Of a stretch of DNA of 1,504 nucleotides, positions 1,065 to 1,496 are shown piece by piece (position 1 is the stretch's first letter; every line of letters begins with the position of its first letter). The position numbers and the translations under genes were made by a program. The notes beneath the pieces are model-generated. The model did no database searches, was not told where the DNA came from, and was given only the letters and a program-made list of their open reading frames with translations. This stretch comes from Escherichia coli (GTDB lineage: Bacteria; Pseudomonadota; Gammaproteobacteria; Enterobacterales; Enterobacteriaceae), in the NCBI RefSeq assembly GCF_003334335.1, contig NZ_QOWQ01000105.1, one strand, 5' to 3'.

Positions 1065-1496
1065 ATGTTTCTGAAAACAGAACAATTTGAATATAACGGT
1101 GTGTCTGTCACGCTTTCCGAATTGTCTGCGCTGCAGCGTATCGAGCATCTTGCCCTCCTGAAACGGCGTGCAGAACAGGCAGAATCCTGCGGCAACCTGC
1201 AGGTAAGCGTGGAAGATCTCGTCAGAACCGGCGCGTTTCTGGTGGCGATGTCCCTGTGGCATAACCATCCACAGAAAACGCAGTCACCGTCAATGAATGA
1301 GGCCGTGATGAAGATAGAGCAGGAAGTGCTCACCACCTGGCCTGCCGATGCCATTGCCCGGGCGGAAGACGTGGTGTTGTGCCTGTCCGGGATGATCGAA
1401 GCTGTTCGTCCGGATACTGATATTACTGAAGTGGCGAAAAATAACACGCTGACTGATGATGATTTTTCTGCGGGAAAGTCTTCGACGGCGAGCTGA
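1065..1496 (+). CDS. G: Tail assembly chaperone, lambda gpG homolog
   Basis: ATG at 1065 with a strong upstream GGAGG; 143-codon ORF ending TGA at 1494-1496. The product begins MFLKTEQFEYNGVSVTLSELSALQRIEHLALLKRRAEQAES... and contains GAFLVAMSLWHNHPQKTQSPSMNEAV...QEVLTTWP, which matches my recollection of lambda gpG. It sits directly downstream of V as in lambda, and a G GGA AAG slippery site lies near its 3' end. Confidence 0.93.
   Translation: MFLKTEQFEYNGVSVTLSELSALQRIEHLALLKRRAEQAESCGNLQVSVEDLVRTGAFLVAMSLWHNHPQKTQSPSMNEAVMKIEQEVLTTWPADAIARAEDVVLCLSGMIEAVRPDTDITEVAKNNTLTDDDFSAGKSSTAS
1472..1478 (+). other. Programmed -1 ribosomal frameshift slippery heptamer (G GGA AAG) for the G-T fusion
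   Basis: GGGAAAG at 1472-1478 is phased so that the zero-frame codons are GGA (1473-1475) and AAG (1476-1478), i.e. G_GGA_AAG, the same heptamer and phasing as the lambda G-T frameshift site. The -1 frame has a TGA stop at 1460-1462 and is open from 1463 to the window end, so it opens only a few codons before the slip site and has no start codon of its own. Confidence 0.8.

Follow-up and report, generated by a model that had tools for sequence, protein, structure and literature searches.

Hypervariable codons adjoin a retained slippery heptamer in a lambda-type tail assembly chaperone gene of Escherichia coli

The C-terminal region of the tail assembly chaperone gpG encoded in an E. coli sequence has diverged from that of phage lambda gpG, while the slippery heptamer beside it has been retained. 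The stretch that we analysed, referred to here as the window, is 1,504 nt long and comes from RefSeq assembly GCF_003334335.1, contig NZ_QOWQ01000105.1. The initial annotation of this DNA had proposed this combination of divergence and retention from the sequence, and the proposal is correct: only 3 of the 24 alignment columns at residues 111-134 are identical to lambda (~40% nucleotide identity, with a net length difference of 3 codons), versus 100% identity at S-A-G-K (residues 135-138). It is also ordinary and already-known biology. A disordered linker in a known family, positioned beside an annotated programmed frameshift, makes the pattern expected and unsurprising, and the result carries little importance. 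Its use is as a quantified example of a general rule, in which a recoding signal and its frames are fixed down to synonymous codons and the adjoining disordered spacer is free to change.

Gene content and divergence from lambda gpG

The window aligns over its length with lambda U, V and G (NC_001416). It contains three co-oriented open reading frames: the 3' end of one, up to position 291, and two complete frames at 299-1051 (250 aa) and 1065-1496 (143 aa). The features discussed below are as follows.

1..291, plus strand: 3' part of U, the tail terminator gene, cut by the window start; aligns with lambda U
299..1051, plus strand: V, the major tail protein gene (250 aa); aligns with lambda V
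1065..1394, plus strand: residues 1-110 of the tail assembly chaperone gpG (the G domain), with a conserved LSGM motif at its end
1395..1466, plus strand: hypervariable acidic segment, a predicted linker or tail, residues 111-134, IEAVRPDTDITEVAKNNTLTDDDF
1467..1471, plus strand: TCT GC (Ser codon, then positions 1 and 2 of the Ala codon), almost invariant just ahead of the heptamer
1472..1478, plus strand: -1 slippery heptamer G_GGA_AAG
1472..1496, plus strand: G/T overlap, reading G-K-S-S-T-A-S-stop in the zero frame and G-K-V-F-D-G-E-L in the -1 frame
1479..1504, plus strand: beginning of T, read in the -1 frame relative to G and truncated where the window ends

U carries the RefSeq name 'phage minor tail U family protein', and V is listed under the name 'phage tail protein / major tail protein V'. 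The product of the G frame, whose C-terminal end is ...AVRPDTDITEVAKNNTLTDDDFSAGKSSTAS, matched the NCBIfam equivalog TIGR01674 ('phage tail assembly chaperone G') over residues 1-139 with 166.1 bits, against a cutoff of 74.45. It also matched Pfam PF06894 (E = 6e-51, residues 1-119), phrog_42 and phrog_32165. The gene order is that of a lambda-type tail module, with U and V upstream of G in the window, and T and the tape measure gene downstream in genomes that carry the same sequence. Among complete E. coli genomes, 541 records contain the window at 99% identity or more, with gpG as the PGAP name of the chaperone, and viral contigs with a G nucleotide sequence identical to that of the window are common. 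U, V and G are lambda-type tail genes, already annotated by NCBI in hundreds of E. coli genomes. A 351-aa stop-free antisense frame (392-1447, minus strand), which runs across V and G, was rejected as spurious; its length in relatives varies from 149 to 367 aa, and its most likely cause is the codon composition of the genes on the sense strand.

The zero-frame stop codon of G lies at 1494-1496. The -1 frame, of which only the first 26 nt fall inside the window, stays open for 157 codons in loci with an identical G. We took the text beyond the window from one such locus, L002, and built the -1 fusion at the heptamer as in lambda. From the slip site, the -1 frame reads G-K-V-F-D-G-E-L-N-F-A-L-R-L-A-R-E-M-G-R-P-D-W-R-A-M-L-A-G-M. 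The resulting G-T fusion product is 290 aa long and carries PF06894 at residues 1-119 and PF06223 (Phage_tail_T) at residues 167-245. Downstream of G in the same-sequence genomes, RefSeq lists 'phage tail assembly protein T' followed by a tape measure protein.

The annotation of E. coli ATCC 11775 (locus L341, 3565-4436) illustrates how such genes are presently recorded. RefSeq gives G plus a separate 'phage tail assembly protein T' with an internal start (4023-4436); no ribosomal-slippage GT product is annotated, and the real fusion protein is therefore absent from the annotation. Annotation pipelines name G correctly, and present T as a separate internal-start frame rather than as a slippage-joined GT.

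Compared with the lambda reference (NC_001416, 9711-10133), gpG is 69% identical overall by BLASTP, with mismatches and gaps concentrated at residues 111-134. The G domain (residues 1-110) shares 79% of its amino acids and 81% of its nucleotides with lambda in a codon alignment, with a dN/dS of 0.21, and the N-terminal domain of T (residues 139-222 of the fusion) shares 83% of its amino acids. Residues 111-134 differ from these flanks with a Fisher exact p of 2.7e-11, and the 24-residue window that starts at residue 111 is the lowest in identity of 267 such windows along the G-T fusion. The alignment of the DNA with lambda repeats the pattern of divergence after residue 110 seen in the protein: nucleotide identity is 0.37-0.50 at window positions 1385-1455 and rises to 0.83-0.93 from 1460. 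The dN of the variable segment relative to lambda is 0.91, seven to nine times that of the flanks (0.13 and 0.10), and its dN/dS is 0.58. A recent compensated frameshift, or another form of hidden homology in the segment, was rejected, as gapped nucleotide identity was 0.37-0.44, like that of unrelated sequence.

These alignments alter the extent, though not the substance, of what the initial annotation had described. The N-terminal part does match lambda closely, but the conserved part is the N-terminal 77% of the protein rather than two-thirds. Divergence is real within the interval that had been assigned to it (1380-1496), but is confined to nt 1395-1466. Likewise, the heptamer lies at SAGK as described, but rather than encoding that motif it covers just Gly-Lys and the third base of the Ala codon before them. 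The expectation that per-position conservation in an alignment with lambda gpG and its homologues would set the two parts of the protein apart was borne out, the C-terminal stretch being far less conserved than the N-terminal.

A second hypervariable acidic segment, with an indel relative to lambda, is found outside the window in T, at fusion residues ~205-225 in L002 (VPRHEEEQVERPDEDK). Nucleotide identity there dips to ~0.4, as deep as in the variable segment of G.

A predicted disordered spacer beside a constrained slip site

We gathered ~250 loci, seeded with four different alleles. The first locus scan yielded only loci at least 97% identical, and diversity came from further scans with other alleles and from the distant alignment. 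G was parsable in 246 loci, which gave 158 unique G-T coding sequences. Among these, codons 111-134 are all variable; their amino-acid entropy is ~1-2 bits, and indels occur. E. coli prophages have five or more linker types, each followed by SAGK: IEAVRPDTDITEVAKNNTLTDDDF in the window, SGAVHADTDSTEVAKNNALTDDDF, TGPVRMESDFTEEAENVDTDVSY, SGPVVNDIPEQTDESGPAESV and lambda's YEFVVNNAPEQTEDAGPAEPV. Motifs are partially shared between types (IEAVRPDTD, SGAVHADTD, SGPVHVDTD, TGPVRMESD, SGPVVNDIPEQ and YEFVVNDAPEQ), a relationship that, judged from the sequences, fits a gradual divergence of the linker.

An AlphaFold2 model of gpG, built with a 44-sequence family alignment (pLDDT 85.5), placed two strands and five helices in residues 1-110 at a pLDDT of 89-98, the last helix spanning residues 94-107. 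No helix or strand was modelled after residue 107, and pLDDT fell below 50 at residues 119-133. In the 40 homologues that share the anchoring Lys, the segment from LSGM to that Lys is 16-33 aa long. Its composition is 30% D/E, compared with 14% in the G domain, and 12% P, compared with 2.8%; K/R make up 4.5%. The PF06894 match stops at residue 119, and most phmmer alignments to full-length representatives of the distant family break off at query residue ~112-128. The absence of predicted structure, the acidic and proline bias, the variable length and the point at which alignments end together indicate that residues 111-134 are a predicted intrinsically disordered acidic linker. A sequence search of the PDB found no relative of gpG, and a Foldseek search of the model against the PDB gave no significant match (the HK97 TAC 2ob9 ranked 33rd, with E = 2.5 and TM 0.37/0.48).

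We estimated dN/dS by the Nei-Gojobori method for eight allele pairs. The linker ratio was 0.3-0.6 in most pairs and that of the flanks about 0.1-0.2. Between types A and A2, linker dN was 0.116 versus 0.02-0.03 in the flanks (four to six times higher), and dN/dS was 0.38 versus 0.13-0.23. The ratio exceeded 1 only between lambda and L133 (1.2), a pair with few differing sites. A ratio that is raised but stays below 1 in the well-populated comparisons points to relaxed constraint rather than diversifying selection, and these linker ratios are themselves unreliable because linker dS is also elevated and the alignment is near saturation.

The slip site shows the opposite behaviour. In all 246 close loci, GGGAAAG is present in phase; in the window G_GGA_AAG occupies 1472-1478, in phase 2 at G nt 408, which is also where lambda has it. 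F134 (nt 1464-1466), the last codon to vary, is separated from the heptamer by 5 nt. Across the 158 unique sequences the nucleotide diversity of the slip site is zero at its Ala, Gly and Lys codons and close to zero at the Ser codon, whose few variants are TCC in type C and ACT in L144. The slip-site Lys is always AAG and the Gly always GGA, whereas elsewhere in the same genes AAG accounts for 24-28% of Lys codons and GGA for 3% of Gly codons. This codon choice against local usage is direct nucleotide-level evidence of selection on the signal. Conservation goes beyond what the amino acids require, as seen in the zero diversity, in the fixed AAG and GGA, and in the A_AAG kept in 37/37 of the distant sequences described below. 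The suggestion that sequence turnover continues right up to a recoding signal under purifying selection is thus upheld. G_GGA_AAG is highly shift-prone in E. coli, where Z_ZZN, and A_AAG in particular, constitutes a minimal -1 site (PMC5009743).

Conservation 3' of the heptamer is mostly attributable to the overlapping T frame, and not to the recoding signal itself. The N-terminus of T is strongly conserved, with no indels, in 55 distinct protein variants, and G's final five residues (SSTAS, CSTVS, PSTAS and so on) arise incidentally from the T frame.

We consider it probable that residues 111-134 are a disordered acidic spacer under selection for its character and not its sequence, and that the block starting 5 nt before the heptamer is doubly constrained. 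In gpG these residues would form a free C-terminal tail; in gpGT they would tether the G domain, which binds the tape measure, to the T domain, which binds V. Selection would act on a flexible, negatively charged stretch of ~16-33 residues, so that the linker could diverge fast through substitutions and small in-frame indels as both flanks stayed conserved. The first constraint on the adjoining block would be the -1 re-pairing of tRNA-Gly and tRNA-Lys on G_GGA_AAG, giving a low, fixed gpG:gpGT ratio for tail assembly. The second would come from the 18 nt that follow, which code in two frames, along with the conserved T N-terminus.

Our data show the conservation profile and the slip-site codon bias, and for the linker its predicted disorder, its skewed composition and its varying length. 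What G and T bind, that ribosomes shift frame at this site and what the linker does we infer from the lambda literature. Lambda frameshifting was studied by Levin, Hendrix and Casjens (1993) and by Xu, Hendrix and Duda (2004, 2013, 2014), as cited in passages of PMC5009743 and PMC4493119. Those passages describe the G part as binding the tape measure and the T part as binding V, with ~30 gpG per gpGT. For lambda alone, gpG is known to bind the tape measure protein and to be missing from mature virions (PMC5009743). By analogy, a flexible tether between the G and T parts would fit the lambda mechanism.

Alternative origins of the divergence

The sharp identity boundaries and the low GC content of the linker (0.40, versus 0.55 in the flanks) could equally indicate a replaced segment. 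The linker may have been imported by recombination from another lambdoid lineage, with crossovers at the LSGM region and at the slip site or T N-terminus; we regard such mosaic replacement as possible, though on the unlikely side. It has precedents nearby. The locus L034 joins a type-A G and linker to a lambda-type T, and some protein variants place a type-A linker within lambda-like flanks (VYRLSGMIEAVRPD...SAGKCSTVS). As far as nt 1138 (G codon 25), Stx1a phages share 95% identity with the window; from there they continue into a G resembling that of P0134, itself 41% identical to the window's G, and in PhiR12_1 only the C-terminal part of V has been swapped. On these comparisons, recombination certainly acts in the U-V-G-T region.

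However, linker type and G-domain clade go together in the set of 158 unique DNA sequences, and no A-type linker is found in a lambda-type G. The G-domain flanks are themselves deeply diverged (dS ~0.6), at which depth an unconstrained segment is expected to be saturated. Intermediate linker forms exist, and the low GC of the linker follows from its Asp/Asn/Thr/Ile-rich composition. Mosaic replacement, moreover, concerns how the divergence originated, and is compatible with a spacer selected for its character as the reason why divergence is tolerated.

Exchange elsewhere in the module was evident in its own right. A mosaic breakpoint lies inside G at window position ~1138, as exemplified by the Stx1a phage Stx1_9793 (L342, 2565-2987). 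The C-terminal third of V together with the V-G spacer (~720-1051) behaves as an exchangeable module: PhiR12_1 has 37-67% identity at window positions 721-1050, with near-identical U, N-terminal V and G, and lambda is most diverged from the window in the C-terminal part of V (0.47-0.7). This part of V carries a Big_2 (Ig-like) domain in homologues.

A further alternative is that the 5' sequence, as mRNA or as nascent peptide, modulates frameshifting, so that linker alleles set different gpG:gpGT ratios. Passages of PMC5009743 and PMC7618472 describe this ratio as critical for lambda, and PMC7618472 as sensitive to tRNA-Lys modification; bases 5' of A_AAG affect shift efficiency (PMC5009743). 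The family also has a semi-conserved lead-in to the slip site, E-P-V-[ST]-A-[EG]-K, in most members including lambda, where the window reads D-D-F-S-A-G-K. Against this, nucleotide conservation among close alleles ends ~5 nt upstream of the heptamer, and we think it quite improbable that the linker tunes recoding. An upstream stimulator was rejected on the same grounds, and a Shine-Dalgarno-like element upstream of the heptamer was not apparent when the aligned sequences were read by eye.

The lead-in bears separately on how strictly the linker is free to vary. Its [ST]-A is semi-conserved before the slip site across the family. At window positions 1449-1472 (residues 129-136), E-P-V-[ST]-A is replaced by D-D-F-S-A, and Glu-Pro is lost in type-A and type-C alleles. 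Because E-P-V-[ST]-A is semi-conserved in most of the family, some sequence preference exists, from which the window allele departs.

A side observation concerns the mRNA on the other side of the slip site. A structure is predicted to begin 7 nt 3' of the heptamer, outside the window, with an outer helix (CGGCGAGC/GCUUGCCG) around a GC-rich hairpin. In L002 it spans 2415-2492 (heptamer +8 to +85), and in lambda it is found at the same place (L001, 1617-1694). The L002 fold has a minimum free energy of -45.8 kcal/mol and a z of -3.25 versus dinucleotide shuffles. Over 11 diverse loci, 86% of cells pair, versus at most 43% with slid partners, and at five pairs both partners have changed. Of 81 unique sequences, 58 form every pair of helix 1, one of its pairs alternating between G-C (54 sequences) and A-U (14 sequences). 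When the null keeps the T protein sequence, the structure is only modestly more stable than expected, with mean z values of -1.4 and -1.1 and a negative z in 19 of 20 representatives. The helix is missing from several clades, and both of its arms encode conserved T residues. In the published view, the G-T shift occurs without need of a stimulator, and we treat the structure tentatively, as a lead only. It seems unlikely that the G-T recoding signal exceeds the bare heptamer, with the 3' two-helix structure and possibly the 5' linker tuning gpG:gpGT in a clade-specific manner; variation in the linker and its flank would then not be neutral for recoding. The possible structure, set against the no-stimulator view of the literature, is a side point of wider interest.

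Diversifying selection on the linker as a surface for contact or recognition (matched, for example, to a particular tape measure or tail tube allele, or evading a host defence sensor) is the least probable reading and very doubtful: linker dN is the highest in G-T and tail assembly chaperones are targets of the bacterial Avs sensor Avs17 (PMC12803255), but Avs17 is modelled as binding the N-terminal TAC core and not the tail (PMC12803255), the linker is predicted to be disordered and of low complexity, and its dN/dS is never convincingly above 1, the single value of 1.2 coming from very few changes. Positive selection on the linker is accordingly unsupported, with dN/dS below 1 in the eight pairs save that one.

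The wider family and known systems

The distant set comprised eight loci for distant representatives plus 37 unique sequences; 44 of 80 distant loci were parsed by regular expression. The slip site is at the same position in the distant loci, and the heptamer varies as follows.

G_GAA_AAG: 33 of 37 unique distant sequences
G_GGA_AAG: the window, lambda and a few distant sequences
A_AAA_AAG: some distant sequences and E. coli Stx1a phages
A_GCA_AAG: one locus

A_AAG alone is invariant across the distant family, in agreement with its description as the minimal -1 site in E. coli (PMC5009743). Retention of the heptamer, as initially annotated, therefore holds within the lambda/E. coli clade, but not across the family, where it reduces to A_AAG. 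At the 3' ends of G in the distant loci (L252, L255, L257, L259 and L261-L338), the commonest heptamer, G_GAA_AAG, is not a canonical X_XXY_YYZ. Its presence in most relatives outside E. coli is a side point of wider interest.

The closest known system is lambda gpG/gpGT itself. It has the same gene order, U-V-G-T-H, an identical G_GGA_AAG in the same codon phase and position, and a G/T overlap of equal length. The spacer between LSGM and SAGK has 24 residues in the window and 21 in lambda, and the two are unalignable: that of the window is Asp/Asn/Thr-rich and lacks the E-P-V lead-in, whereas that of lambda is Pro/Glu/Ala-rich and has it. T in L002 differs from lambda T in its second variable acidic segment and in a longer C-terminus.

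The enterobacterial homologues with G_GAA_AAG share LSGM, an acidic Pro-rich linker, [ST]-A-x-K and a conserved start of T. They differ in that their slip site has only A_AAG in common with that of the window, and in that G often stops one codon past the Lys. The Stx1a phages, which carry a P0134-type G, resemble the window in PF06894, in the first 25 residues of G, which are identical, in the U-V context and in the position of the slip site, but have the linker LDNRHDADPEQTGKAEATEPVTS and the heptamer A_AAA_AAG. The -1 frameshift in E. coli dnaX, also at A_AAA_AAG, is alike in that tRNA-Lys slips from AAG to AAA (PMC5009743). Unlike G-T, whose shift is reported to be of low efficiency and to occur without stimulators, dnaX has a 5' Shine-Dalgarno element and a 3' stem-loop and shifts with high efficiency.
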